From Bacillota bacterium (lineage in GTDB: Bacteria; Bacillota; Limnochordia; Darwinibacteriales; Darwinibacteriaceae), in the NCBI GenBank assembly GCA_012838305.1, contig DUPN01000100.1, forward strand, positions 30,489 to 94,488: DNA of 64,000 nt, read 5' to 3'. Position 1 is the first letter of the stretch; the number at the start of each line of letters is the position of its first letter. Positions 6,613 to 55,512 of this stretch are shown in pieces. The notes below the pieces were generated by a model, which was not told where the DNA came from, did no database searches, and saw only the letters and a program-made list of their open reading frames with translations. The translations under genes and the position numbers were made by a program.

Positions 6613-7301
6613 AGGCTTACCTCCGCTTCGCCTGCCATCATGCGCTCAAGCTCCCGGATGAGATTTCTGACATTCCTGTTCGACGCTGGACGCGCCAGCA
6701 TTTCGGCTGGAGTGAGCTCTTGGTTCCAATAGACTTGATTGGCATTGACACTGTTGTCGATGGAAGCCCCTTCCAGCGAGGCCCCAATAAAGGCGCCCTT
6801 GCTGATGGAGTAACTGTACATCACTGCATCAAGCGTGAGGTTGGTTCCAGCCTCTGCAGAGCGTCCCAAGGGACCGGCGGCCACGGAGAGGTTGCCGCCT
6901 AGGGTGATCTGACCTTCTTCCAGGCTGCGTAAACCTTCCTCGGCCGTCATCACCAGAACAAGGGAGGTTTTTTGGACGCCGATCTGCAGTCCATAGGAAA
7001 TGCCCTTCAGCTGCACGAAATACGGTCCATACCAGCGTTCTTGAGAGGGGTCATACTTGAGAACAACGCCCTCACCGTAGCGTCCTCCCAGGCCCAATCC
7101 TGCTTTAAGCACCGAAGGGAAAACGGCTACACCGCGGGTGTTTTGCAGTACATAGCGGAAGTGTTCTGCATCCGGCTGCTCCGCAATCTCCTGGAGCACC
7201 TGCACCGCTTCGTCTATGAGCTCCCCAGGGGCCTTTGTTGCGCCGGCTGCAGAGCTGATGATCAGCAGCAAACCTAAGGTTACAATAGCAATCTGTTTCA
7301 T
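6609..7301 (-). CDS. secreted SYLF (Ysc84-like) lipid-binding domain protein
   Basis: 230 aa. N-terminal signal peptide MKQIAIVTLGLLLIISSAAGA. GLGLGGRYGEGV and YSYSISKGAFIGASLEG blocks are typical of the SYLF/DUF500 domain. 4-nt overlap with luxS. Confidence 0.7.
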   Translation of the reverse strand: MKQIAIVTLGLLLIISSAAGATKAPGELIDEAVQVLQEIAEQPDAEHFRYVLQNTRGVAVFPSVLKAGLGLGGRYGEGVVLKYDPSQERWYGPYFVQLKGISYGLQIGVQKTSLVLVMTAEEGLRSLEEGQITLGGNLSVAAGPLGRSAEAGTNLTLDAVMYSYSISKGAFIGASLEGASIDNSVNANQVYWNQELTPAEMLARPASNRNVRNLIRELERMMAGEAEVSL

Positions 7302-7384
7302 CTGCTTTCCTCCTCACTGATGGTTTTCATCTTGGTTTAGGACAACCCTTTCCTGAATATACATGGGGAAAGGGAGGGGAGAAG

Positions 7385-8128
7385 ATGCATCTGTGGCATG
7401 TGTTCGTGCTGCCAAGGCGGCTCATGGGAACGATGCTCCTGGCTGTTGCCGTCCTGATCGCATTATCCGTATATTATACCTATCCTCTTGGCATTTACAC
7501 CCTGCGCTTGGTAAAGCAGGATATTCTGTATGACATTATGCTTGACCCCGGGCATGGAGGCATTGATCCAGGAGCGATTGGAGCCGGGGAGATCTACGAG
7601 AAACACTACGTTTTGGATATTGTGCTGCAGATGGCGGAAATCCTGCGCTCCCATGGACTCAAGGTGGGATTGACCAGGGAAACAGACCGCGATGTGAGCC
7701 ACCTTGTGAGTGAGGGTACACGGCATCGCAGAGATCTTCTAGGTCGGTTCAAGCTCATGGACCAGGCCCAGATGGGAATGAGTGTGCACACCAACTCCAC
7801 CAAGAACAAAGAAGAATCCGGAGCCATCGTCTTTTATATGAACGACCAGTATGTGGATGAAATCTACGCGCAAATCGTTCTGGAAGAACTGGAAAAGGTG
7901 CAGGTACTCAATGAACCTCGTCCCATTCCCCGCAGTACCCTCTTGCTCCTGAAGGCGAAACCGCCTGTGATCTTAGTTGAACTTGGCTTCATGTCCAACC
8001 CCACGGATCTGGCGAAGCTCGGGGATCCTGCTTTTCGCGGCAATGTGGCCCAGGCTCTCTGCAGCGGCATCCTGCGCTTTATCGATTGGCGCTATGGCGA
8101 GCAGAGCGAGTCCGGTTCACCCATCTGA
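7385..8128 (+). CDS. cwlD: N-acetylmuramoyl-L-alanine amidase, CwlD-like (germination-specific)
   Basis: 247 aa. N-terminal TM helix, then LDPGHGGIDPGA, SVHTNS and VELGFMSNP (Amidase_3 zinc ligands). The architecture matches B. subtilis CwlD. Confidence 0.72.
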   Translation: MHLWHVFVLPRRLMGTMLLAVAVLIALSVYYTYPLGIYTLRLVKQDILYDIMLDPGHGGIDPGAIGAGEIYEKHYVLDIVLQMAEILRSHGLKVGLTRETDRDVSHLVSEGTRHRRDLLGRFKLMDQAQMGMSVHTNSTKNKEESGAIVFYMNDQYVDEIYAQIVLEELEKVQVLNEPRPIPRSTLLLLKAKPPVILVELGFMSNPTDLAKLGDPAFRGNVAQALCSGILRFIDWRYGEQSESGSPI

Positions 8129-14656: not shown

Positions 14657-15085
14657 ATGCTTGAAGTAACGGGAAAAATGGTTTGGAAGGGGGCCAAGGC
14701 TGGACTGGATACAACCTGGGAATTAGCCAAGGTGGTGGTACCTACCGCCATCGTTGTGGCAATTTTTCGAGCTAGCGGCCTTTTAGATACCATCACCGCC
14801 TTGTTCGCTCCCTACATGGGCTTCTTTGGCCTCTCCGGTCAAACGGCCATCGTCCTTTTCAGCGGATATTTTATCAATCTCTATGCGGCGGCCGGCAGCA
14901 TCCTTGCCCTCAGCCTGCCTGTTCAGGAAATCGCCATCACCTCTGTCATGCTTGGATTATGCCATTCCCTCTTGGTGGAGTTGCCTGTGAGCCAGAAAGC
15001 CGGCAGCCCCCTTGGTTACATCTTTCTAATCCGCCTCGGCTGCTCTTTGGCCATGGGCTGGCTGTTGGGAGTGGTTTTGCCATGA
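14657..15085 (+). CDS. nucleoside-recognition (Gate) domain membrane protein
   Basis: 142 aa polytopic membrane protein, resembling the N-half of SpmA/YjiH-type Gate-domain proteins. Confidence 0.55.
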   Translation: MLEVTGKMVWKGAKAGLDTTWELAKVVVPTAIVVAIFRASGLLDTITALFAPYMGFFGLSGQTAIVLFSGYFINLYAAAGSILALSLPVQEIAITSVMLGLCHSLLVELPVSQKAGSPLGYIFLIRLGCSLAMGWLLGVVLP

Positions 15086-15516
15086 GTGTACTTTGGGAAG
15101 GTTTGCTGCAGGGGATGCGAGGTGTCGGTACCATCGCTCTGGTGGTGATCCCACTGATGATTACCTTGGAAATCGCAGAGAGCAATGGTTGGCTGCAGAA
15201 GCTAAACCGGGTAGTATCGAAGCCCTTTAGGACCATAGGTCTCAGTGAGGAAGGGGCATTTCCTGTGGTTGTGGCCATGGTTTTCGGTCTCACCTTTGGA
15301 TCGGGTGTCATCATCAACCATGTTCGCCGCGGCCAAGTAAGCCGCAAAGAAGCGCGGGTCACAGGGACCTTTATGGCCTTGGCCCACGCCTTAATTGAAG
15401 ATACCCTAATTTTCTGGGCTCTCGGTGCGCCTTTCCTGCTGCTTTTGGCACCGCGACTGCTGGTGGCCTATGCGATGGCCTACATCGTGCATAAGCTAAC
15501 GCCCGCTGAGTCCTAA
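15082..15516 (+). CDS. nucleoside-recognition (Gate) domain membrane protein, partner subunit
   Basis: In-frame ATG 15082 within track ORF 14959-15516 overlaps the upstream stop (ATGA). About 144-aa membrane protein. Confidence 0.55.
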   Translation: MSVLWEGLLQGMRGVGTIALVVIPLMITLEIAESNGWLQKLNRVVSKPFRTIGLSEEGAFPVVVAMVFGLTFGSGVIINHVRRGQVSRKEARVTGTFMALAHALIEDTLIFWALGAPFLLLLAPRLLVAYAMAYIVHKLTPAES

Positions 15517-16652
15517 CCCACAGGGACAACCTCCAGGCGGTCGATGACCCAATGATTCTGACCAGGGGATAACTCCAGGTTCAAAAGGAGCTTTGTACGT
15601 TCTGCGTGAGGTACAAAGACGGTGATGGCAAAGGGCTCTAAGACAGCATACTCAACCGTCCAGGGTACCACAGGGTTCAGGCTCAGCAAAAATTGGAGGA
15701 CATCCCCCTGGCCCTGGGCGATGCTAGGGTTAAGTAAGGAGAGGAGCCTGTCTTCGTTGGCGGCCTGCACCGCCAAGCGCATCGCACCGACAAACTCTTC
15801 CACAGAGTGCAGCACTTCCCTGGGAAGGTCTGGCCCTTGGGGGGTCAGGGCGAAGGATACGAGCTCCAGACGGTCGCCCCGCTCCTGCCAGAGCACGGAC
15901 GCCTGATAGCGGAAACCTCTGTCTGTGGAAAACAAGATCGTATGCTCATCCTGGGCTGAACTCGTGACCCTTCCATAGGAGCTGGGCAGGCTGGCCAGGT
16001 ATTGCCCCAATCCGGCCTGGCGCAGAGGGTGGCTCAGCAGAGCCTCGATTTCCCCCACATTTCTCTGATTGATGGAGTTGGTCAGCCTGGTTACCTGCAT
16101 CTGCATCCTGGACGCTCCTGCCCGCGTAGGTGGATCAACGAGCGGGGGCGTTTCTGTCAGGGGCTGATCGGCCGCTGCAAGGGCAGTACTCCTCACGGTG
16201 AGCGCTGGATAGAAGGGGGGCTCGCTCTGCCAGGAGACCAGGCTCCAATCGTCCGGCAATGTGAAATGAATCTGGGGGCTTTCAATGGCAAAAGAGAACT
16301 CTGGAAACCAGAGACTGTCCCGATCCAACAAAACCTCGCTGTTTCTTGGGCTCAAGAACCCTTCGTAGGAGAGATTTAAGGTCTGCCGCCGGACTTGCTG
16401 CAGTGACAAGGTGACCACTGTGCCATGTGCGCTCCGCTGGATATTGTACTCGCGCAGTTCGTCGGCCCACAACTCCGTAATCTGGGCTGAGGGGAAGAGC
16501 AAAAAGGATGGCGCCGCACTTCCTGGTTCCATGGTGACTTCAAGCTGAACCCGGAGGAAACCGCTCTCCGGCAGGAAGAAGACCTCCGCTTGGGCCAGGG
16601 CCGATGTGCTCCATAAAAGAAGTAACAACAGACAGTAGACGCTTTTTCTCAT
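15513..16652 (-). CDS. secreted hypothetical protein
   Basis: 379 aa. Cleavable signal peptide MRKSVYCLLLLLLWSTSALAQA. I recognise no family. Start overlaps the GNAT stop. Confidence 0.55.
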   Translation of the reverse strand: MRKSVYCLLLLLLWSTSALAQAEVFFLPESGFLRVQLEVTMEPGSAAPSFLLFPSAQITELWADELREYNIQRSAHGTVVTLSLQQVRRQTLNLSYEGFLSPRNSEVLLDRDSLWFPEFSFAIESPQIHFTLPDDWSLVSWQSEPPFYPALTVRSTALAAADQPLTETPPLVDPPTRAGASRMQMQVTRLTNSINQRNVGEIEALLSHPLRQAGLGQYLASLPSSYGRVTSSAQDEHTILFSTDRGFRYQASVLWQERGDRLELVSFALTPQGPDLPREVLHSVEEFVGAMRLAVQAANEDRLLSLLNPSIAQGQGDVLQFLLSLNPVVPWTVEYAVLEPFAITVFVPHAERTKLLLNLELSPGQNHWVIDRLEVVPVG

Positions 16653-17098
16653 TGATCCCTCTCCTCGATTTCCCTGATCTGGCGACGCATGGTGCGGTGG
16701 GGGATACCGCCGTCTAGAAACACGGCTCCTTCTGCCTTGAAACCTAGCTTCACATAGAAATCCAAGGCCTGAAGCTGAGCGGCTAACACGAATTCGTTAC
16801 GACCCGCGGCCGCCCCTGCGGCCATGAGAGCCTGAAGCAGCCCGCGGCCGAAACCCCGACCCCGAAACTCGGGCAGAATGGCCAAACGTCCTATCAGGCC
16901 CACCCCGTCTTGAAGCACCAAACGACCCGTACCAACCAAGCGGCCGTCCAGAAAGCCGCCAAAGTGACGAGCGGTTAAGTCCAGACTATCGTGCTCCTCT
17001 TCCAGGGGCACCTTTTGTTCCTCCACAAAAACCTGAATACGGATCCTCATAGCGGCAGAAAGTTCCTGCTGCTGCAACTCACGATAGACGGCTGGCAC
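16649..17098 (-). CDS. GNAT family N-acetyltransferase
   Basis: Acetyl-CoA motif A block ILPEFRGRGFGRGLLQAL. I moved the start to GTG 17098 (GGGAGG 7 nt upstream), because the longer track ORF would cover a strong divergent promoter. Confidence 0.7.
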   Translation of the reverse strand: MPAVYRELQQQELSAAMRIRIQVFVEEQKVPLEEEHDSLDLTARHFGGFLDGRLVGTGRLVLQDGVGLIGRLAILPEFRGRGFGRGLLQALMAAGAAAGRNEFVLAAQLQALDFYVKLGFKAEGAVFLDGGIPHRTMRRQIREIEERDQ

Positions 17099-17144
17099 GG
17101 ACAAACCTCCCAAAATGTTCCTATGGTATGTTTTGTCTTTTTTC

Positions 17145-17173
17145 TTGAAATCCCTGCCAAGGGTTGCTATAAT
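17145..17173 (+). promoter_or_regulatory. sigma-A promoter of the aminotransferase-reductase fusion gene (TTGAAA-17-TGcTATAAT)
   Basis: TTGAAA at 17145-17150, 17-bp spacer, extended -10 TGcTATAAT ending at 17173. Confidence 0.55.
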
Positions 17174-17178
17174 TAGCG

Positions 17179-17201
17179 TGTGCACAGTTTGTGCTCACAA
17201 A
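17179..17201. promoter_or_regulatory. tandem palindromes at the transcription start (candidate operator)
   Basis: Perfect palindromes TGTGCACA (17179-17186) and TTTGTGCTCACAAA (17188-17201) lie between the -10 and the RBS. Confidence 0.3.
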
Positions 17202-17217
17202 TTTGGGGAGGTCAAGG

Positions 17218-19827
17218 ATGCATCCATACATAGAATTTGTCAACCCTCATTTAGGCAAATTATTGACCGAAATTGGCCTGGACAAACGTTTTGTGCGTGG
17301 GAGTGGGGCTTACCTATATGACGATGAACAGCAAGAGTACCTTGACTGTATTGCAGCCTACGGTGCCTTGCCCTTTGGTTATAATCCCCCCGAAATCTGG
17401 CAGGTACTCCATAATCTAGAATCTAACCAAGAGCCAAGTTTTATACAACCCTCCTTGCTGGAAGCCGCCGGGGACTTAGCTGCGGGACTGATTGCAGCGG
17501 CACCCCCGGGTTTGAAGCAAGTGACATTCGCCAACAGCGGTGCTGAAGCTGTGGAAGCCGCCTTTAAGCTTTGCCGGGCCAAAAGTGGCAAGATGACAAT
17601 TCTGTCCACGACAAACAGTTTTCATGGTAAGACCCTGGGCGCTCTGTCCGCAACGGGAAATCCTGACTACCAAAGAGTATTTGGAGCCCCGGTGGCGGGT
17701 TTTCAGCATGTGCCCTATGGGGATATCCCAGCTCTAGAGGCTTATTTAGAGGAATATGCCCAGGATACAGCGGCCTTTATCGTGGAGCCTATTCAAGGCG
17801 AGGGTGGTATTATCGAAGCTCCCCGGGGCTATCTTGGCGAGGTACAAAAGCTTTGTGCCAAGCACGGCGTATTGACAATATTCGACGAGATCCAGACAGG
17901 GTTGGGGAGAACAGGTGCCATGTTCGCCTGTGAACGGGAAGAGGTCACCCCCGACTGTTTAGTCGTGGCCAAGGCCCTCGGGGGCGGACTCATCCCCATT
18001 GGCGCTGTGCTGTGTAAAGAAGATGTCTACAGTGAGGACTTTGGCCTCAAACATTCTTCCACCTTTGCCGGCAACGCCCTTGGCTGCCGAGTTGGTCTGG
18101 CCGTTTTGGATCGCTTGACCCAAGATGACCACATGCTCCTCCGGGAAATCCGCCGCAAGGGCCGCAAGCTCAAGGCTGCTCTCGTGGCGGTGGCGGATCG
18201 CTATCCCCACATCGTCCAAGGGGTGCGGGGAGAGGGATTGATGCTCGGTCTGGAGTTTGTCCATTGCAGAGAGCCGTTCCCCCATAGCCTCTTGGGGGTC
18301 ATGGCTGAGCTTGAACTCTTAACGCCCATGGTGGCATCCTATTTATTGAATGTGGAGAGAGTACGAGTGGCTCCAACGCTTAACGGTGCTAGCGTAATCC
18401 GGATTGAGCCGCCCTTGATCATCACGGATGCCCAGATTGATCGCGTGATTGAGGCCGTGGAAAACACCGTGGCCATGTTGGCCCAACGAAACACCGCCGC
18501 CTTCCTGGGGCACTTGGTGGGCTATGGCTTTTCTCTGAACCAAGCTACTCCCAAGGCAGAAGAGGTGGTCAAGGTTGAGCCCCGGCCTGAAGATGGACGT
18601 TTTGCTTTTTTGGTGCATCCGGTGGACCTGCACAACTATACGGAGTTTGATGCCAGCTTAGGCAGTCTAAGCCCTGAACAGCTCGCCGATCTCAGTTCCC
18701 GGTGGAATGACATGGTAGAGCCCTTTGTAGTCAGCAGCTCCAGGATCGTGGACCATCTGGGGCAAAGTGCCTATGGTGATTTTATCTGTGTTCCCAAAAC
18801 AGCCCAGCAGCTCTTGGCCGACCCCGAGGGGGCTTTGCAGGAAATCGCATCCGCGGTGCAGTTAGCCGCTGAGAGGGGTGCCAAAATTGTTGGCTTAGGA
18901 GCCTATACCTCCGTTGTGACCATGGGCGGCCGGCAGCTTTTGCCTCATACCAAGGTGGCCCTGACGACGGGAAACAGTTATACTGTCGTCTCGGGTGTGG
19001 AAGCTCTGCTAGAAGCTGCCAAACGCCTAGAGATCGATGTGCACTGTGCAACCGGCGTCGTGGTTGGCGCGGGGGGAGCTATCGGCAAGGCCCTGGCACT
19101 GCTTCTATCCGAACAGGTCCAGAAGCTGATTCTGGTGGGAAATCCGGCACGTCCAAAAAAGAGTGAGTACCGCATGCTCAAGGTAGTGGCGGAGATCATT
19201 GGCCATCTTAAGGAGATGGGCGAGGCTGGCCATTCCTTCGCAGAAGATAGCCTAGGAGCCTGGGTGCAGAGCTTAAGGGGTATTCCATCAAGTGCAGATT
19301 CCCTAACGAAATGGGTCGACTATGTGCAAGAGCTTCTGAACAAACCCTCGCCTGTGAGGATTACTATTAGCCGTGAAGATGCAGTACCCAAGGCCGACCT
19401 ATTGATGGTCGCAACCAGCAGCTTGGAAGCCTTAATCACGCCGGAACTTCTGAAACGGGGGGCCGTTGTGTGTGATCTGTCCCGACCTAGCAATGTGAGT
19501 GAAGCGGTCCTTAGGGAACGTCCTGACGTCCTGGTCATCGACGGCGGGATTGTCGCCATGCCGAACTCCCCCGATTTGGGATGGAACTTCGGTTTTGAAA
19601 AGGGAACAGGATTCGCCTGCATGTCGGAGACGATCATGCTGGCCTTGGAGAAACGTTATGAGCATACGAGCTTGGGGGCGGATCTGAATGTGAAACAGCT
19701 GGCGCTGTTCCGGGACCTAGCAGCGCAGCAAGGTTTTACCCTGGCCGGGTTCCGGAATCTGGATCGGCCGCTCGATCCCGCTCTGTGGGAACGTGTGCGA
19801 GCATTCAGGCTCACGTCCAGCGCCTAA
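17218..19827 (+). CDS. fusion protein: class-III PLP aminotransferase (N) + acyl-ACP-reductase-like NAD(P)-binding domain (C)
   Basis: N-half: FANSGAEAVEAA, DEIQTGLGRTG, VVAKALGGG (PLP lysine), HSSTFAGN. C-half from about residue 450: FAFLVHP, GLGAYTSVV, LTTGNSYTV, VVGAGGAIG (Rossmann) and GFACMSE. From memory these track the cyanobacterial AAR blocks GLIGH, LGGFTSII, FTTGNTHTA, VVGATGDIG and MFACFAE. ATG 17218 chosen behind GGGGAGG. Confidence 0.85.
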   Translation: MHPYIEFVNPHLGKLLTEIGLDKRFVRGSGAYLYDDEQQEYLDCIAAYGALPFGYNPPEIWQVLHNLESNQEPSFIQPSLLEAAGDLAAGLIAAAPPGLKQVTFANSGAEAVEAAFKLCRAKSGKMTILSTTNSFHGKTLGALSATGNPDYQRVFGAPVAGFQHVPYGDIPALEAYLEEYAQDTAAFIVEPIQGEGGIIEAPRGYLGEVQKLCAKHGVLTIFDEIQTGLGRTGAMFACEREEVTPDCLVVAKALGGGLIPIGAVLCKEDVYSEDFGLKHSSTFAGNALGCRVGLAVLDRLTQDDHMLLREIRRKGRKLKAALVAVADRYPHIVQGVRGEGLMLGLEFVHCREPFPHSLLGVMAELELLTPMVASYLLNVERVRVAPTLNGASVIRIEPPLIITDAQIDRVIEAVENTVAMLAQRNTAAFLGHLVGYGFSLNQATPKAEEVVKVEPRPEDGRFAFLVHPVDLHNYTEFDASLGSLSPEQLADLSSRWNDMVEPFVVSSSRIVDHLGQSAYGDFICVPKTAQQLLADPEGALQEIASAVQLAAERGAKIVGLGAYTSVVTMGGRQLLPHTKVALTTGNSYTVVSGVEALLEAAKRLEIDVHCATGVVVGAGGAIGKALALLLSEQVQKLILVGNPARPKKSEYRMLKVVAEIIGHLKEMGEAGHSFAEDSLGAWVQSLRGIPSSADSLTKWVDYVQELLNKPSPVRITISREDAVPKADLLMVATSSLEALITPELLKRGAVVCDLSRPSNVSEAVLRERPDVLVIDGGIVAMPNSPDLGWNFGFEKGTGFACMSETIMLALEKRYEHTSLGADLNVKQLALFRDLAAQQGFTLAGFRNLDRPLDPALWERVRAFRLTSSA

Positions 19828-19842
19828 GACATGATTCGAAAG

Positions 19843-19866
19843 ACCGGGAGAATTCTCCCGGTTTTA
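19843..19866 (+). terminator. intrinsic terminator after the fusion gene
   Basis: Perfect 20-nt palindrome ACCGGGAGAATTCTCCCGGT followed by TTTTA. Confidence 0.55.
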
Positions 19867-19945: not shown

Positions 19946-21229
19946 ATGGGGATGAAAAGTATGGACGAACTAGCTCTCCACGGTGGACAGCCGGTACGCA
20001 CGAAGCCGTGGGTTTCGAAATACTTGGGTAGTGAAGAGGTGGGGGCCGAGGAAAAGGATCGGGTTTTACAGGTCTTAAACAAGAAACGTATCTTCCGTTA
20101 CCTGCCTGCGGCGATAGAAACCTCGGAATGCAGCGCTTTGGAAGAAGAGTACAAGGCATTTCTGGGCACCAAGTACGCCTTAGGCGTCAATTCGGGCACA
20201 TCGGCCTTGATCTGTGCGCTGGTGGCGGCAGGTGTGGGCCCTGGAGATGAGGTGCTTCTTCCCGCCTACACTTGGGTGGGCAGCGCCGCCGCGATCACCC
20301 TGGTGGGGGCAGTACCTGTTCTCTGCGAGATTGATTCCAGTCTGACCTTGGATCCAAACGACATGGCCAAAAAAGTTACTGCCCACACCAAAGCGGTCTT
20401 GGTCGTTCATATGCGGGGAATCTCGGCGGATATGGATGCTATTATCGCCGTGGCCCAAGAGCGGGGGATCAGGGTGATTGAGGATGTGGCCCAAGCCAAT
20501 GGCGGAACCTATCGGGGGCGGATGCTCGGGTCCATCGGTGATCTCGGCTGCTTTAGTCTGCAACAGTCAAAAGTGATTACAGCAGGCGAAGGAGGCATGC
20601 TGGTCACGCAGGGCGAAGAGCTGTGGCAGCGCGCTGTTTTGTATCATGATGGCGCCGGGTATCAATTTCGCTTTACTGAAAGGAAAATTCCAGCCTTTCC
20701 TGGGCAAAACTATCGTTTAACCGAATTGCAGGCAGCCCTCTGCTTAGGGCAGCTGGGGAAGCTGCCGGCTATCTTGGAGAGGACTAAGGCGAACAAACAG
20801 CAGCTGGTCCATGCTTTACGCCAGGTATCGGGTATTGAGCTCTCCCCGGTTTTCGGCACCGAGCGTGATCTGGGTGTAAGCTTGATTTTCTACGTCAAGG
20901 ACGGTACAAGCGCCCATTGGGTGTCCCGGGCCCTAACGGCAGAGGGCATCCCCGCCTTTCATGTCTATGATCCGCAGGAGAAGGATCAACACATCTACAC
21001 TAACTGGGAATTCCTTGTGGGGAAGCGTGATCCCTGGGGAGGCAGTTATCCTTGGAGTCTGCATCCCGCACGGGAGATGGACTATTCCCAGGATAGCTGC
21101 CCACGCTCTCTGGGCCTTCTGAACAGGGCGGTACAAATTCATTTGAATCATTTGGCCACAGAGGAAGATCGGAAGGATATTCTTGCTGCGATCCGCAAGG
21201 TCACAGCCCACTTGGGCTCACGGCGATGA
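19946..21229 (+). CDS. DegT/DnrJ/EryC1/StrS family PLP aminotransferase
   Basis: 427 aa. GVNSGTSAL, VVHMRG, EDVAQANG, and FSLQQSKVITAGEGG (lysine in the usual position). Confidence 0.85.
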   Translation: MGMKSMDELALHGGQPVRTKPWVSKYLGSEEVGAEEKDRVLQVLNKKRIFRYLPAAIETSECSALEEEYKAFLGTKYALGVNSGTSALICALVAAGVGPGDEVLLPAYTWVGSAAAITLVGAVPVLCEIDSSLTLDPNDMAKKVTAHTKAVLVVHMRGISADMDAIIAVAQERGIRVIEDVAQANGGTYRGRMLGSIGDLGCFSLQQSKVITAGEGGMLVTQGEELWQRAVLYHDGAGYQFRFTERKIPAFPGQNYRLTELQAALCLGQLGKLPAILERTKANKQQLVHALRQVSGIELSPVFGTERDLGVSLIFYVKDGTSAHWVSRALTAEGIPAFHVYDPQEKDQHIYTNWEFLVGKRDPWGGSYPWSLHPAREMDYSQDSCPRSLGLLNRAVQIHLNHLATEEDRKDILAAIRKVTAHLGSRR

Positions 21230-51257: not shown

Positions 51258-51472
51258 GTGAACTGAAGTTTGAAGCAGCTCTAGCCCGTCTAGAAGAGAT
51301 CGTGCGCAGCCTCGAACAGGGTGATGCCGAGCTTGATGAGGGACTGGTGCTCTTTGAAGAAGGTGTGAAACTGGCTCGATTCTGCAACGAACAGCTCGAT
51401 CAAGCGGAAGCCAAGATTGAAATCATGATCGATCAAGGTTTGATCGAACCATTTGAGGTGAAGGAATCGTGA
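51254..51472 (+). CDS. xseB: exodeoxyribonuclease VII small subunit
   Basis: 72 aa. FEAALARLEEIVRSLEQGD..LDE.L.LFEEGV. Confidence 0.9.
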   Translation: MSELKFEAALARLEEIVRSLEQGDAELDEGLVLFEEGVKLARFCNEQLDQAEAKIEIMIDQGLIEPFEVKES

Positions 51473-52341
51473 AGGATTGGATCAGCGAAGTGGAGGCCAT
51501 TTTGGATCAAGCCTTGCCCTCAGCGGAGACTGTGCCTGAGCTTCTGCACGAGGCGATGCGCTATTCCACTTTAGGCGGAGGCAAACGTCTGCGAGCGCTT
51601 TTAACCATGGCTGCCTGTGTTGCTGTGGGCGGAAACAGGGAGGATACGGCCGCTCTAGTCGCGGCAGTGGAGATGGTGCACGCCTATTCCTTGATCCATG
51701 ATGACCTGCCTTGTATGGATGATGATCACCTGCGCAGGGGAAAACCCACCAACCATATTGTCTATGGTGAAGCTAACGCGGTGCTGGCCGGCGATGCTCT
51801 GCTCACAGAGGCCTTTGCTGTTCTGGCCAAAATGCCGGAGACAATGGGCATTTCTGCGGAGACTACAGCCTTGGTCATCTCGGAATTGGCCCAGGGAGCC
51901 GGTTCCCGGGGCATGGTGGGGGGCCAGGTCATGGATATTGCAGGGGAAGGCCAGGATCTGGACTCCGAAACTCTGCGCACAATTCACGACCACAAAACCG
52001 GTGCACTGATTCGAGCAGCCCTGAGAGGCGGAGCCCTACTCGGCGGAGCCCATCCGGAGCAGCTAGAGCAAATCACCCGTTATGCCCAGGGTTTTGGCTT
52101 GGCCTTCCAGATTACCGATGACATCCTGGACGAGGTAGGCCAGACCGAACAGCTTGGTAAGACGACTAAGAGTGATCAGCGTTTAGGTAAACAAACCTAC
52201 CCCAGACTCTATGGACTGGAGGGCGCCAAGGAAATGGCCCGCCTCTGCGTGGAGGAATGCCACAGTGCGCTCCAGGACTTCTCCCAAGACGCAGACTACC
52301 TGCGGGAGCTGGCCACCTTTATCCTCCAGCGCGACCATTAG
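51469..52341 (+). CDS. ispA: (2E,6E)-farnesyl diphosphate synthase / polyprenyl synthetase
   Basis: First DDxxD LIHDDLPCMDDD and second FQITDDILD aspartate-rich motifs. Confidence 0.9.
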   Translation: MKDWISEVEAILDQALPSAETVPELLHEAMRYSTLGGGKRLRALLTMAACVAVGGNREDTAALVAAVEMVHAYSLIHDDLPCMDDDHLRRGKPTNHIVYGEANAVLAGDALLTEAFAVLAKMPETMGISAETTALVISELAQGAGSRGMVGGQVMDIAGEGQDLDSETLRTIHDHKTGALIRAALRGGALLGGAHPEQLEQITRYAQGFGLAFQITDDILDEVGQTEQLGKTTKSDQRLGKQTYPRLYGLEGAKEMARLCVEECHSALQDFSQDADYLRELATFILQRDH

Positions 52342-52346
52342 CTTAC

Positions 52347-52376
52347 TTGCACGCAAAGAGAAAGCTGTGTTATAAT
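52347..52376 (+). promoter_or_regulatory. sigma-A promoter (TTGCAC-18-TGtTATAAT) in front of the non-coding region
   Basis: TTGCAC at 52347-52352 and an extended -10 ending at 52376. Confidence 0.55.
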
Positions 52377-52382
52377 TGAATC

Positions 52383-52995
52383 AACCTAAAGGTGAATGGC
52401 GCAGTATTCTAGTCATCAACCTAATTCTTGAAAGCGGACCTAAAAAGCCGTTGAGGGCACATCGATGAAGTCTTTGGTGGTGGCTTCCGACGCCCAGTCG
52501 GGGGTTGCTGCTGAGGGTTAAGGTTAGAGGGCGATCTGCAAGGGCATGCAGGCGTTGACCCTCTTTCCACGGAGACCCATGACTGTGGAAACATGGAGAA
52601 CGTGTTTCTACGGCTTGGGATTAAACCTGCACGCGATACGTATTCTCAGCTTGGTCGTACATCAGTGTTGGGTGCAGCGTAGCCTGTCTTGCGTGGTGAT
52701 CGGGGGATAGCGGTTATGGGTAAGGTTCTCCGGCCAGAGAACACTGCCCGTCGCAGCAGCGAAACACCCTTGAAACCTTCACTGCAAAAGAGACTAGAGA
52801 ATTTGGATTCGATGCCGAGGAAAACTCCTAGACTGTTTCTCTTGGAGAAGGTGGAATGGGGATTACGGTGTGGTCTAAGTGGTAATCCAGCCTCTGCTAT
52901 GGTGACAAGCGAAAAGATCGGAAAGGGGAAACCGCCAGTCGCGGTGACGGGCTGGAAGATCTTTGGGAAAACCTGCTGGACCTAAGCCACAATCT
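52383..52995 (+). ncRNA. ole: probable OLE (ornate, large, extremophilic) RNA; ends approximate
   Basis: About 0.65 kb without credible coding capacity between ispA and a small 4-TM gene preceding dxs, which is the published OLE/oapA context. Nested helices are visible, e.g. AGAGGG 52526-52531 / CCCTCT 52559-52564 enclosing CTGCA 52536-52540 / TGCAG 52547-52551. Not verified against a covariance model. Confidence 0.65.
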
Positions 52996-53057
52996 TTACT
53001 CATTTCACTGCCATTCACCTTAGTGTTACAACATAGGAGTATTGCCAAGGAGCGCTC

Positions 53058-53636
53058 ATGAGGATCCGTTGGAAGAAAGTACTTACATTAACGCTAACCA
53101 CATTTTTGGTGTCCTTAGCTTTTAATCTGGGTAGTAACAGCGTATTGTCGTTTGTGCCATTGACATTAAGCTTAGTGTTACTACTTTTTATTATCCTTTT
53201 GGGCGTGGTCTTCGATATTGTGGGAGTAGCGGCCACTGCGGGCGAAGAGGCCCCTTTTCATGCCATGGCATCCAACCGTTTACGCGGTGCCAAACAAGCA
53301 ATCTGGCTGGTTCGTAATGCTGACTCTGTCTCCACCTTCTGCAATGATCTCATCGGAGATGTGGCCGGGACTCTAAGCGGAGCGGTGGGTGTAGCCATTG
53401 TGCTCAATTTGGATCGTCTCTCGGCAGGACTTGGAGGGACGCTGGCCAATACATTTGTCGTGGCATTAATTGCTGCTCTAACCGTAGGAGGAAAATCACT
53501 GGGAAAAAACTTTGCCATCTCCAAGTCGACAACCATTCTGACCATCGCAGGACGCCTGCTTTATTCACTGGGACGAATCGGAATTCGCTTTGATGCAAAG
53601 ACGGCAAAAACAAGAAGAGGTAAGAACAATGGGTAG
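53058..53636 (+). CDS. oapA: OLE-associated membrane protein OapA-like
   Basis: 192 aa, about 4 TM helices, with FDIVGVAATAGEEAPFHAMAS and FCNDLIGDVAGTLSGA. It lies immediately downstream of the OLE-like region and overlaps the dxs start by 8 nt. Confidence 0.65.
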   Translation: MRIRWKKVLTLTLTTFLVSLAFNLGSNSVLSFVPLTLSLVLLLFIILLGVVFDIVGVAATAGEEAPFHAMASNRLRGAKQAIWLVRNADSVSTFCNDLIGDVAGTLSGAVGVAIVLNLDRLSAGLGGTLANTFVVALIAALTVGGKSLGKNFAISKSTTILTIAGRLLYSLGRIGIRFDAKTAKTRRGKNNG

Positions 53637-55512
53637 TAAGGGTTGGCTGGATCGGGTGAATTCGCCGGAAGACCTCAAAAAACTCGATTTGCATGCGCTG
53701 GAACTTCTGGCCGAGGAAATTCGCTCTCATATCATTTCTACCGTGGAACGTACAGGTGGTCACCTCGGCGCAAACTTGGGTGTTGTGGAATTGACTCTGG
53801 CTCTACATACGGTACTCTCTGCGCCCCGGGACAAAATCATCTGGGACGTAGGTCATCAGTGTTATCCCCACAAGTTGATCACCGGTCGCAAAGATCGCTT
53901 CCACACGCTCCGTCAATGGGGCGGGATCTCAGGGTTTCCCCATCCTGAGGAGAGCGAGTATGATCATTTTGGGGTAGGACATAGTTCTACCTCTATTTCT
54001 GCTGCCGCGGGCATGGCCATTGCCCGGGATCTGGCGGGCCAAGATCACAAAATCGTGGCCGTGATCGGTGATGGGGCTCTCACAGGGGGAATGGCCTTTG
54101 AAGCCCTCTGTCACATCGGCTCTCTGGGGAAAGATATCGTGGTGATCCTGAACGACAATGAAATGTCCATCACCAATAATGTGGGTGCCCTGAGCGATTA
54201 TCTAGGACGCATTCGCTCGGATCGGAGATTGTACAAGGCCAGGGAGGACCTCTCTCTCTTGCTGCGCCGTATACCCCTTGTGGGCAAGCCGCTTTCGCAA
54301 GTGGCACATAAATTCAAAAGCACCTTAAAGAATATGCTTCCAGGCCAGCTTTTTGAGGATCTAGGCTTTGCCTACTTAGGACCCTTTGACGGGCACAATA
54401 TTCCCCGCCTGCAAAGGGCCTTGCGAGCGGCAATTGCCCGGGGAGGACCTGTGCTCCTCCATGTCTACACCCAAAAAGGGCGGGGACATGCCTTAGCGGA
54501 GGAGAATCCCGAGCGCTACCACGGCGTAGGGCCTCTGCAGGTTGTGAACAAACGAAAAACCCTCTCCTATAGCGAAACATTCGGAAAATCGCTGGTAGCT
54601 CTGGCGGAGACCAATCCTAAGATTGTGGCTATCACAGCAGCCATGCCCGATGGAACGGGTCTCCATCACTTTGCTCGTCGTTTTCCCGACCGTTTCTTCG
54701 ATGTGGGCATTGCGGAGCAGCATGCTCTGACTTTGGCTGGAGGTATGGCCAAGGAAGGATTGCGCCCAGTGGTCGCCATCTATTCCACGTTTTTGCAGAG
54801 GGGATATGATCAGATTATCCATGATCTGGCCCTGCAAAAGCTCCCTGTAGTCATTGGTGTTGATCGGGCGGGTGTAGTAGGGGATGATGGTCCGACGCAT
54901 CATGGTGTTTTTGACATCAGTTTTTTGAGGGCTGTGCCCAATTTGACGATCTTAGCACCCCGCACAGGTCATGAACTCCAAGCTATGCTGGAGTGGGCCT
55001 TAGCCCAATCCGGACCTGTGGCCATCCGCTATCCTCGGGGTGATGCGAGCAGGCATGGGTCCCAGGCGAGTTTCGATCCCCAGCGACCGATTGGGGCCGA
55101 GCTAGTCAAATCCGGCCGGGACCTCGTGATCTTTGCTGTGGGTCCCATGGCGGAGGTAGCCCTAGAGGCCGCGCGCCTAGCTGAGCCGGAGGTCAGCTGC
55201 GGGGTGGTCAGTGTCCGCTCCATCAAACCTTTGGACGCCAACACCTTGCTAAATCAGGCGAGAAGGACACAGTCCGTCTTGACCGTTGAGGATCACGTCC
55301 TCGCGGGGGGATTTGGCAGCAGCATTCTGGAACTCCTTCAAGGCGAAGGGATCAGGATCGAGCGCCTCGGCTATCCCGACACCTTTATCCCCCAGGGAGA
55401 TCGGCATCATCTCCAGGAAGAATATGGACTCAGTGTTCAGCATGTACTGCAAACCATTCGAAAAGCGGCATCACTACGTCCGCTTCAGGCCGTGGCCAGA
55501 AAGGATCTGTAG
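53629..55512 (+). CDS. dxs: 1-deoxy-D-xylulose-5-phosphate synthase
   Basis: GGHLGANLGVVELT, WDVGHQCYPHK, GDGALTGGMAFEA (TPP motif). ATG 53629 behind AAGAGG. Confidence 0.97.
   Translation: MGSKGWLDRVNSPEDLKKLDLHALELLAEEIRSHIISTVERTGGHLGANLGVVELTLALHTVLSAPRDKIIWDVGHQCYPHKLITGRKDRFHTLRQWGGISGFPHPEESEYDHFGVGHSSTSISAAAGMAIARDLAGQDHKIVAVIGDGALTGGMAFEALCHIGSLGKDIVVILNDNEMSITNNVGALSDYLGRIRSDRRLYKAREDLSLLLRRIPLVGKPLSQVAHKFKSTLKNMLPGQLFEDLGFAYLGPFDGHNIPRLQRALRAAIARGGPVLLHVYTQKGRGHALAEENPERYHGVGPLQVVNKRKTLSYSETFGKSLVALAETNPKIVAITAAMPDGTGLHHFARRFPDRFFDVGIAEQHALTLAGGMAKEGLRPVVAIYSTFLQRGYDQIIHDLALQKLPVVIGVDRAGVVGDDGPTHHGVFDISFLRAVPNLTILAPRTGHELQAMLEWALAQSGPVAIRYPRGDASRHGSQASFDPQRPIGAELVKSGRDLVIFAVGPMAEVALEAARLAEPEVSCGVVSVRSIKPLDANTLLNQARRTQSVLTVEDHVLAGGFGSSILELLQGEGIRIERLGYPDTFIPQGDRHHLQEEYGLSVQHVLQTIRKAASLRPLQAVARKDL

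Follow-up and report, generated by a model that had tools for sequence, protein, structure and literature searches.

We describe a gene from a stretch of 64,000 nucleotides of a Bacillota bacterium of the Limnochordia (assembly GCA_012838305.1, contig DUPN01000100.1, positions 30,489 to 94,488 of the forward strand), referred to below as the window. The gene (17218..19827, plus strand; 869 amino acids plus stop) joins a class III aminotransferase (TA) to a reductase (TR) that resembles the acyl-acyl carrier protein (ACP) reductase AAR, and is called the TA-TR gene here. By analogy with characterized relatives, it probably encodes a bifunctional enzyme of the TamH type, which would convert an acyl thioester via the aldehyde to a primary amine, with expression under the control of an operator. 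The fusion and its chemistry are already known, and the window protein is a distant new member found in a different biological setting. What is new is that the enzyme belongs to a conserved, uncharacterized system of operator, helix-turn-helix (HTH) protein, a partner protein named p300, and reductase that is common in anaerobic Bacillota.

A single gene for a two-domain protein

The open reading frame (ORF) listed for the window starts with GTG, encodes 878 amino acids, and is uninterrupted (17191..19827, plus strand). An ATG at 17218 gives a protein of 869 amino acids with the N terminus MHPY; it is preceded by the ribosome-binding site GGGGAGG (17205..17211, plus strand, 6 nt 5' of the ATG), which is kept in alignment A1, and this start is kept in 13 related loci. 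We take the ATG at 17218 to be the real start. Domain models, homologues, and an AlphaFold2 (AF2) model all support the gene as a unit. The model of the whole chain has a predicted local distance difference test score (pLDDT) of 89.6 and a predicted template modeling score (pTM) of 0.84 and is confident in both domains. Between them lies a linker (about residues 426 to 458; 18493..18591, plus strand) that is partly of low confidence: the pLDDT falls to 63 around residues 441 to 450, a stretch that is variable in alignment A2.

The first-pass annotation had named a frameshift or an assembly error as what would break the fusion into two genes. Among 5.8 billion proteins searched, full-length homologues (849 to 904 amino acids, 53 to 99% identity, 97 to 100% query coverage) formed more than 120 clusters, drawn from NCBI, JGI, ENA, and Logan assemblies, and a scan with one genome per species found the same fusion at 43 genome loci. 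The gene is thus a single one. The taxonomic survey that had been suggested places it in several classes of Bacillota: the labeled carriers are Limnochordia and unclassified Bacillota from anaerobic digesters, as well as Halanaerobiales (including Halothermothrix), Dethiobacteria, Syntrophomonadaceae, and Thermosediminibacterales.

The C-terminal half resembles acyl-ACP reductase

The AAR-like thioester reductase domain comprises about residues 459 to 869 (18592..19824, plus strand) and was delimited by profile matches, PDB matches, and AF2. For residues 441 to 869, the NCBIfam PigE model matched with its N-terminal domain (E 5e-49), as did TIGR04058, the model of cyanobacterial acyl-ACP reductase (E 5e-21); among PDB chains, they match PigE (4ppm, E 2e-29) and AAR (6jzq, E 1.5e-11). 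Pfam gave sub-threshold matches alone for this half, to NAD-binding domains. A model of the TR domain by itself (pLDDT 94.8) had AAR (6jzu/6jzy) as its first Foldseek match, with an E value of about 4e-22 and template modeling (TM) scores of 0.63 on the query and 0.75 on the target. The second match was the "terminal amidation domain" of carmabin, published in 2025, and the E values of all others trailed by over ten orders of magnitude. The carmabin domain is AAR-like and has an invariant Cys beside the NAD (bioRxiv 10.1101/2024.10.28.620694).

The assignment of this half to the acyl-ACP reductases, made at first from motifs, is therefore borne out, and the hidden Markov model (HMM) alignments show that the motif parallels are homologous and not due to chance. 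TTGNSYT aligns with TTGNTHT of AAR, GAGGAIG (19066-19086, plus strand) with the Rossmann motif GATGDIG, and the FAC of GFACMSE with the FAC of AAR and the matching Cys of PigE. The predicted acyl-accepting residue, Cys801 (19618-19620, plus strand), thus stands in the same column of the sequence alignment as the AAR Cys, and the thought that the domain might belong to an unrelated family or one devoid of the Cys fails. T583 to N586, G617, A618, G620, G623, and C801 are invariant in 50 full-length homologues; among 40 homologues of the TR domain, the GxGxxG motif is invariant and the Cys nearly so.

A helical insertion of about 65 to 70 amino acids follows the second beta strand of the Rossmann fold (about residues 643 to 712; 19144..19353, plus strand), as seen in alignment A3, the alignment with TamH, and the AF2 model. 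It is found in TA-fused reductases, including TamH, and in none of the standalone AAR-like proteins of alignment A3; AAR and PigE do not have it either, and the HMM alignments break there. The window protein has no acidic residue after this strand, and neither has NADH-specific TamH. A prediction of the cofactor from this position was abandoned since TamH and NADPH-using AAR are alike there.

The N-terminal half is an omega-aminotransferase

That the N-terminal half is a complete omega-aminotransferase, as had been stated, was confirmed. The class III domain, which depends on pyridoxal phosphate (PLP), covers about residues 1 to 425 (17218..18492, plus strand); Pfam Aminotran_3 matches residues 26 to 417 (E 6e-89), and DEIQTG (D223, E224, and Q226) and the PLP-binding Lys252 in AKALGGG (17971-17973, plus strand) are invariant in the 50 full-length homologues. 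The best PDB fold matches of the full model are the TA domain of PigE (4ppm) and the putrescine aminotransferase YgjG (4uox), both with 40% identity and TM scores on the target of about 0.83 to 0.85 (0.84 for YgjG), followed by acetylornithine and ornithine aminotransferases and CrmG.

Class III aminotransferases that act on carboxylate substrates, such as ornithine aminotransferase (OAT, Arg180), acetylornithine aminotransferase (AcOAT), and 4-aminobutyrate (GABA) aminotransferase, bind the carboxylate with the Arg of FHGRT, and YgjG has Lys183 at that site, which its authors tied to the preference for diamines (PMC4244111). In the window protein, the position is held by Lys138 of FHGKT, which is invariant in the 50 homologues and aligns with Lys183 of YgjG and with the Lys of FHGK(T/S) in PigE; TamH likewise has FHGKT in the BLASTP alignment, whereas OAT, AcOAT, and GABA aminotransferase have their carboxylate-binding Arg there in the residue alignment. 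Since Lys138 replaces the Arg that binds the carboxylate, the aldehyde substrate is probably one without a carboxylate, with an alkyl, otherwise neutral, or cationic chain. Malonate and succinate semialdehyde, which would give beta-alanine and GABA, were dropped as candidates because of the invariant Lys138. By our reading of the motifs against the residue set of PMC4244111, Glu195 and Arg395 (in IRIEPPL) would correspond to the pair Glu235/Arg413 by which OAT handles 2-oxoglutarate. Lys138 together with Glu195 and Arg395 would fit glutamate as the amino donor and a carboxylate-free aldehyde as the acceptor.

Comparison with TamH, PigE, and other relatives

The first-pass annotation knew of no characterized member of this architecture, which proved wrong. 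PtTamH of Pseudoalteromonas tunicata, the omega-transaminase-thioester reductase of the tambjamine YP1 pathway (941 amino acids), was purified in 2022 (PMC9594044). It has the transaminase at the N terminus and the AAR-like reductase at the C terminus (Richardson et al. 2022, PMC9594044). Together with the adenylation-ACP protein TamA, it converted the C12 acid to the C12 amine, dodecylamine, with NADH and L-glutamate; without glutamate the C12 aldehyde was formed, and C12-CoA was not accepted (PMC9594044). PigE has the same two domains in reverse order. It requires a thioester intermediate and a reductase step (Couturier et al. 2021, PMC8341465), and its N-terminal domain is AAR-like, with Cys296 over Cys294 of AAR (PMC8341465). 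The authors likened PigE to the pair of glutamyl-tRNA reductase (GluTR) and GSAM, that is, to HemA/HemL (PMC8341465), the very comparison that had been drawn for the window protein.

For the comparison with TamH, we used the protein sequence in supplementary Figure S6, which was machine-read and contains a few character-recognition errors; the gene sequence in the supplement was too damaged by the same process and was left aside. BLASTP aligned residues 135 to 856 with 27% identity over 755 columns (E 1e-66) and a second segment, residues 15 to 117. Lys252 aligns with K340 of TamH (VVAKALGGG/TLAKSLGGG), Cys801 with C887 (GFACMSET/VYACCGET), and G617xGxxG623 with the corresponding TamH motif, and the stretch after the second beta strand aligns without a large gap. 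The two proteins thus share the order TA-TR, a collinear linker, the positions of the PLP-binding Lys, the GxGxxG motif, and the Cys, the FHGKT motif, and the insertion after the second beta strand. They differ in an extra insertion of about 70 amino acids in the TA domain of TamH (TamH residues 124 to 206). TamH is also encoded in a pigment cluster beside TamA, whereas the window gene is solitary, among housekeeping genes and behind a regulon-specific operator; no tambjamine or prodiginine cluster and no adenylation-ACP partner of the TamA type was found within 10 kb in the window and 44 related loci.

PigE of the Serratia prodigiosin MAP pathway (NF053554; PDB 4ppm) is homologous in both domains, and no other curated model scores as high on either half. 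Measured in this way, both halves are slightly nearer to PigE than to TamH. The TA domains are 40% identical, the Cys is aligned, and the logic proposed for PigE runs from thioester via aldehyde to amine. Unlike the window protein, PigE has the order TR-TA and no insertion after the second beta strand, and its substrate is a 3-acetyloctanoyl thioester from PigD, made in a pigment cluster. The reversed order is evident in the model alignment, in which TA falls on profile positions 383 to 729 and TR from positions 1 to 193 onward; the score of 554.7 bits lies below the cut-off of 850. Judged by domain order, linker, and insertion, the window protein is best classed as TamH type.

Cyanobacterial AAR (TIGR04058; 6jzq/6jzu/6jzy) is the top fold match of the TR domain and aligns with it at the Cys of FAC, TTGN, and the Rossmann motif. 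It is, however, a standalone protein of 340 amino acids with about 20% identity and no insertion, its aldehyde goes to the oxygenase ADO, and the window protein scores 75.4 bits on TIGR04058, below the equivalog threshold of 449.7. Escherichia coli YgjG/PatA (4uox) shares with the TA domain the 40% identity, the fold, and the Lys in FHGK, but is standalone and catabolic; the putrescine aminotransferase models gave scores below their cut-offs (NF008570, 326.7 against 612 bits; TIGR03372, 289.3 against 658.65 bits). The nearest relatives of the TR domain are standalone AAR-like reductases of about 360 amino acids (COG5322, "predicted amino acid dehydrogenase") from anaerobic Bacillota, Armatimonadota, and others. 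They are 38 to 42% identical to it, nearer than TamH, PigE, or AAR, and lie in HTH-p300-reductase operons, where they have the same operator upstream and share the slot after p300 with TA-fused forms. Unlike the window protein, they have neither a TA domain nor the insertion, and they are uncharacterized and offer no functional anchor.

Proposed reaction and substrate

We infer the chemistry of the window enzyme from TamH, PigE, and AAR, and the cofactor, amino donor, carrier, type of chain, and regulator are likewise inferred. The acyl group of a thioester, most likely of an acyl carrier protein, would be transferred to Cys801 of the C-terminal domain; the acyl-enzyme would be reduced by NAD(P)H, with release of the aldehyde; and the N-terminal PLP domain (Lys252) would transaminate the aldehyde to the primary amine, with L-glutamate/2-oxoglutarate as the likely donor pair.

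Larger fusions bear on the nature of the substrate. A Myxococcota protein combines a FAAL-like adenylation domain, a carrier domain, and an aminotransferase, and the remaining C-terminal part has a length that would accommodate TR. A variant of 1406 amino acids has the order TA-TR-AMP-binding, and its locus also encodes a second AMP-binding protein, a condensation domain, MMPL, and a fatty acid desaturase. Fusions with adenylation and carrier domains suggest that the substrates are carrier thioesters derived from carboxylic acids.

As a separate observation, TR takes part in larger fusions of several kinds, namely, TA-TR-adenylation (about 1400 amino acids), adenylation-carrier-TA-(TR) (about 1520 to 1600 amino acids), and one protein of 2624 amino acids. 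Examples lie at locus L052 (8001-12221) and locus L057 (5902-10473), and the Myxococcota example is directly preceded by p300.

Promoter, operator, and terminator

The TA-TR gene had been described as monocistronic, with its own promoter, operator-like palindrome, and terminator, and the sequence supports all of these. A sigma-70-type promoter, TTGAAA-17-TATAAT with a TG extension, lies at 17145..17173 (plus strand) and has 11 of 12 matches; both hexamers vary little or not at all among the 13 related loci. Directly 3' of the -10 box follows the operator-like palindrome TGTGCACAGTTTGTGCTCA (17179..17197, no strand assigned), with the consensus TGTGCACAA-N2-TTGTGCACA. The window element, TGTGCACA-N3-TGTGCTCA, is as invariant as the promoter in the 13 loci. 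An inverted repeat 17 nt 3' of the stop codon (19844..19865, plus strand) would form a terminator-like hairpin, CCGGGAGAATTCTCCCGG, with TTTT behind it; the terminator scan did not call it. Rfam found no RNA family near the gene.

Of all features of the locus, the operator was the most telling. The palindrome was found in a single copy in the window, with 2 mismatches to TGTGCACAA-N1-2-TTGTGCACA, and at 81 sites in 77 loci over 1.54 Mb of fetched DNA, against 0 to 2 in shuffled sequences. With very few exceptions, the sites lie just upstream of an HTH gene or of a TA-TR gene that stands alone; in the window, the 20-bp palindrome separates the promoter from the gene. When we scanned for up to 3 mismatches, it occurred solely upstream of the TA-TR gene in 25 of the loci, including those of Limnochordia-like bacteria, Halanaerobiales, Dethiobacteria, Thermosediminibacterales, and Syntrophomonadaceae. 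A subgroup (L018, L022-L026, and L041) has TA-TR without the palindrome; there, a separate promoter and a hairpin lie between the gene and the conserved string with acpS, nnr, and alr upstream. To our knowledge, the palindrome matches none of the motifs of Rex, CRP/FNR, TnrA, NrdR, the Fur family, or AraR.

The operator links the gene to an HTH-p300-reductase module

At locus L050, whose TA-TR protein is 55% identical to that of the window, two tandem palindromes are followed by an HTH-p300-TA-TR operon. The operon is headed, directly behind the palindrome, by an XRE/Tfx-like HTH protein of 177 amino acids (L050 8475-9005; counterpart at L053 5482-6027), followed by p300, which has 306 amino acids in L050 (L050 9052-9969, L053 6034-6933, and L054 6090-6983). 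HTH and p300 genes also adjoin TA-TR in L055, L056, and L060-L065. Thermovenabulum gondwanense has the same arrangement with a standalone AAR-like reductase of 360 amino acids in third place (HTH 47% and p300 60% identical), and the palindrome follows the operon's own promoter. On a contig of gut Negativicutes, p300 and then the reductase lie between dus and greA.

More than 8000 homologues of p300 were found, almost always directly upstream of an AAR-like reductase or TA-TR. We fetched 80 metagenomic p300 loci (L058-L137), of which 63 had at least 1.2 kb of downstream sequence. The gene right after p300 in these 63 was a standalone AAR-like reductase in 47, TA-TR in 5, and neither in 11. The HTH gene is directly upstream of p300 in most of the fetched loci, and the usual order is coaX-dus-HTH-p300-reductase-greA-lysS, in which the names come from two Pfam-annotated loci.

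The HTH protein, positioned right behind the palindrome, is for that reason likely to be an autoregulating repressor of the regulon. For the window gene, a repressor bound to the 20-bp palindrome after the -10 box probably controls expression, and the candidate is an XRE/Tfx-like HTH protein of about 180 amino acids. A tblastn search for HTH and p300 gave no homologue of either, both in the 64 kb of the window and at the 44 genome loci; the two may be encoded elsewhere in the host genome, with HTH as the putative repressor of the window gene. Searches of Pfam, NCBIfam, PADLOC, and the PDB, with the single sequence and with a profile, gave no match for p300. The label "quinate 5-dehydrogenase" in some NCBI records found no support. 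The N terminus of p300, VSLGSSKRNH, may bear a faint resemblance to the phosphate-1 motif of acetate kinases. At L056, a gene for S-adenosylmethionine decarboxylase (7295-7669) lies directly 3' of the HTH-p300-TA-TR operon, a single, unreplicated hint at polyamines.

Alternative explanations

Several points weigh against a TamH-type, amine-forming enzyme. None of the named models (PigE, AAR, and putrescine aminotransferase) gives the protein a score that reaches its curated cut-off, and no more than 27% of aligned residues are identical in TamH. In the window and the 44 related loci, the vicinity of the gene holds neither an adenylation enzyme nor a dedicated carrier protein nor a biosynthetic cluster. 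Furthermore, the sequence does not show which way the reaction runs in vivo, and the conserved partner p300 could change the picture.

The main rival is the catabolic direction of the same enzyme. TA would deaminate an amine or diamine, such as a putrescine-like compound or an alkylamine, and TR would oxidize the aldehyde via a thiohemiacetal on Cys801 to an acyl thioester for CoA or ACP, thereby conserving energy in a fermentative anaerobe. The closeness of the TA domain to catabolic YgjG, which equals that to PigE (40%, TM on target 0.84), the Lys of FHGK common to both proteins, a dedicated repressor and operator as would suit an inducible catabolic gene, and the lack of an acid-activating partner near the related loci are all in line with this direction. 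The characterized members of the AAR/PigE/TamH reductase clade, however, are all reductive, no conserved transporter, phosphotransacylase, or kinase adjoins the gene in the related loci, and the adenylation and carrier domains of related fusions feed a reductive route. We consider catabolism unlikely.

A second alternative is that the substrate is a polar, nonfatty activated acid, supplied by or with p300, and that the product is a small amine of primary metabolism, polyamine-like or cofactor-related, and not a fatty amine. The operator is common to the HTH-p300-reductase module in its housekeeping context (coaX-dus ... greA-lysS; 50 loci), the S-adenosylmethionine decarboxylase gene stands directly downstream at one related locus, and the family is kept across several classes of Bacillota without a biosynthetic cluster. 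Against this, Lys138 speaks against succinate, malonate, and glutamate semialdehyde, the nearest characterized relatives and the FAAL-like fusion of Myxococcota use fatty or alkyl chains, and p300, which has no recognizable fold or family, lends no positive biochemical support. A polar substrate is rather improbable as well.

The first-pass annotation had allowed for acyl-tRNA or acyl-phosphate in place of the thioester. The route from thioester via aldehyde to amine matches PtTamH and PigE, the catalytic residues are present, and channeling between the domains is possible; the two other kinds of substrate found no support. A pair like HemA/HemL or ArgC/ArgD, acting on aminoacyl-tRNA or acyl-phosphate, could be argued from the overall fold class that GluTR shares with AAR (PMC8341465), from the 297 bits that TA scores on the ArgD subfamily model, and from lysS, which often adjoins the related module. 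The hemA model TIGR01035, however, matches only 45 residues of the C-terminal half (residues 280 to 324 of that half; E 0.014; 14.3 bits, where the cut-off is 209.55), compared to 5e-49 for the PigE reductase domain, ArgD, LysJ, and OAT carry Arg where Lys138 is invariant here, and the score is under every ArgD and LysJ cut-off. Such substrates are very improbable and effectively excluded. So, too, and with next to no probability left to it, is an artefact in which a frameshift or misassembly joined two neighboring genes: a frameshift is ruled out by the full-length homologues, over 100 of them, from independent assemblies, and the identical fusion at the 43 genome loci and the confident model across both domains (pTM 0.84) speak against it as well.

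Neighboring genes and other features of the window

The neighbors named at the outset are present: a divergent GNAT gene upstream and a DegT-type aminotransferase gene and dapF downstream; genes for GDPD and two M42 peptidases are also found. The order GNAT/DegT/DapF/GDPD/M42 is kept only in relatives with at least 65% identity, and GNAT is missing in several of these. Because they are conserved in close relatives only, as in plain synteny, the neighbors carry no functional signal, and the neighborhood was rejected as a clue to function, with 29 more distant loci having differing neighbors. One distant group has acpS, nnr, alr, and genes for an 81-amino-acid lipoyl/biotinyl-like protein and a Glucodextran_C (SLH-like) membrane protein upstream and hydrogenase-4-like (hyf) genes downstream; other distant loci have glycosyltransferases (GT4), homocitrate synthase-aconitase-IDH, ProRS, or LuxS.

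As listed, the GNAT ORF (16649-17185, minus strand) starts with GTG at 17185 and would cross the TA-TR promoter. Its start is most likely the GTG at 17098, with the ribosome-binding site GGGAGG, which would give a protein of about 149 amino acids and a divergent intergenic region of 119 bp. The DegT/DnrJ/EryC1-type aminotransferase (427 amino acids; 19946-21229, plus strand) is co-linear with TA-TR in close relatives only and is far below all named sugar-aminotransferase cut-offs, the best being the LegC family with 175 against 420 bits.

Elsewhere, the window contains a full-length ornate large extremophilic (OLE) RNA (52380-53030, plus strand; 465 bits) in its classic setting (51469-55512). 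An ispA-like prenyl diphosphate synthase gene (51469-52341) lies upstream, and genes for an oapA-like membrane protein of 192 amino acids (53058-53636) and dxs (53590-55512) lie downstream; these names come from reading the translations. At 14657-15516 (plus strand), two overlapping ORFs of 142 and 185 amino acids, each with a nucleoside-recognition "Gate" domain, have the appearance of a pair of the spmA/spmB type, and, as they overlap by about 125 nt, the true start of the second is probably downstream of the listed one.

Biological meaning

Enzymes of the TamH type are wanted as catalysts that convert fatty acids to amines in one protein. The clade described here has more than 100 members and comes from moderately thermophilic anaerobic digesters; it offers new and possibly more robust variants. 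The gene is kept alone across several classes of Bacillota, outside of natural product clusters, and this retention as a single gene suggests that the amine has a part in ordinary cell physiology.

Tentatively, and with somewhat more doubt than confidence, we picture the window enzyme as an arm of a widespread regulon of anaerobic Bacillota, also present in some Armatimonadota and Myxococcota and consisting of the repressor with its palindrome, p300, and an AAR-like reductase. The regulon may make an aldehyde, or an amine where TA is fused, for primary metabolism or the cell envelope and not for a pigment, and would then represent a new pathway and not a copy of tambjamine-tail synthesis. The operator ties TA-TR to the very common three-gene module beside coaX-dus and greA-lysS, and the regulator, operator, and partner protein of this module provide a testable handle on a conserved system in anaerobic Firmicutes.

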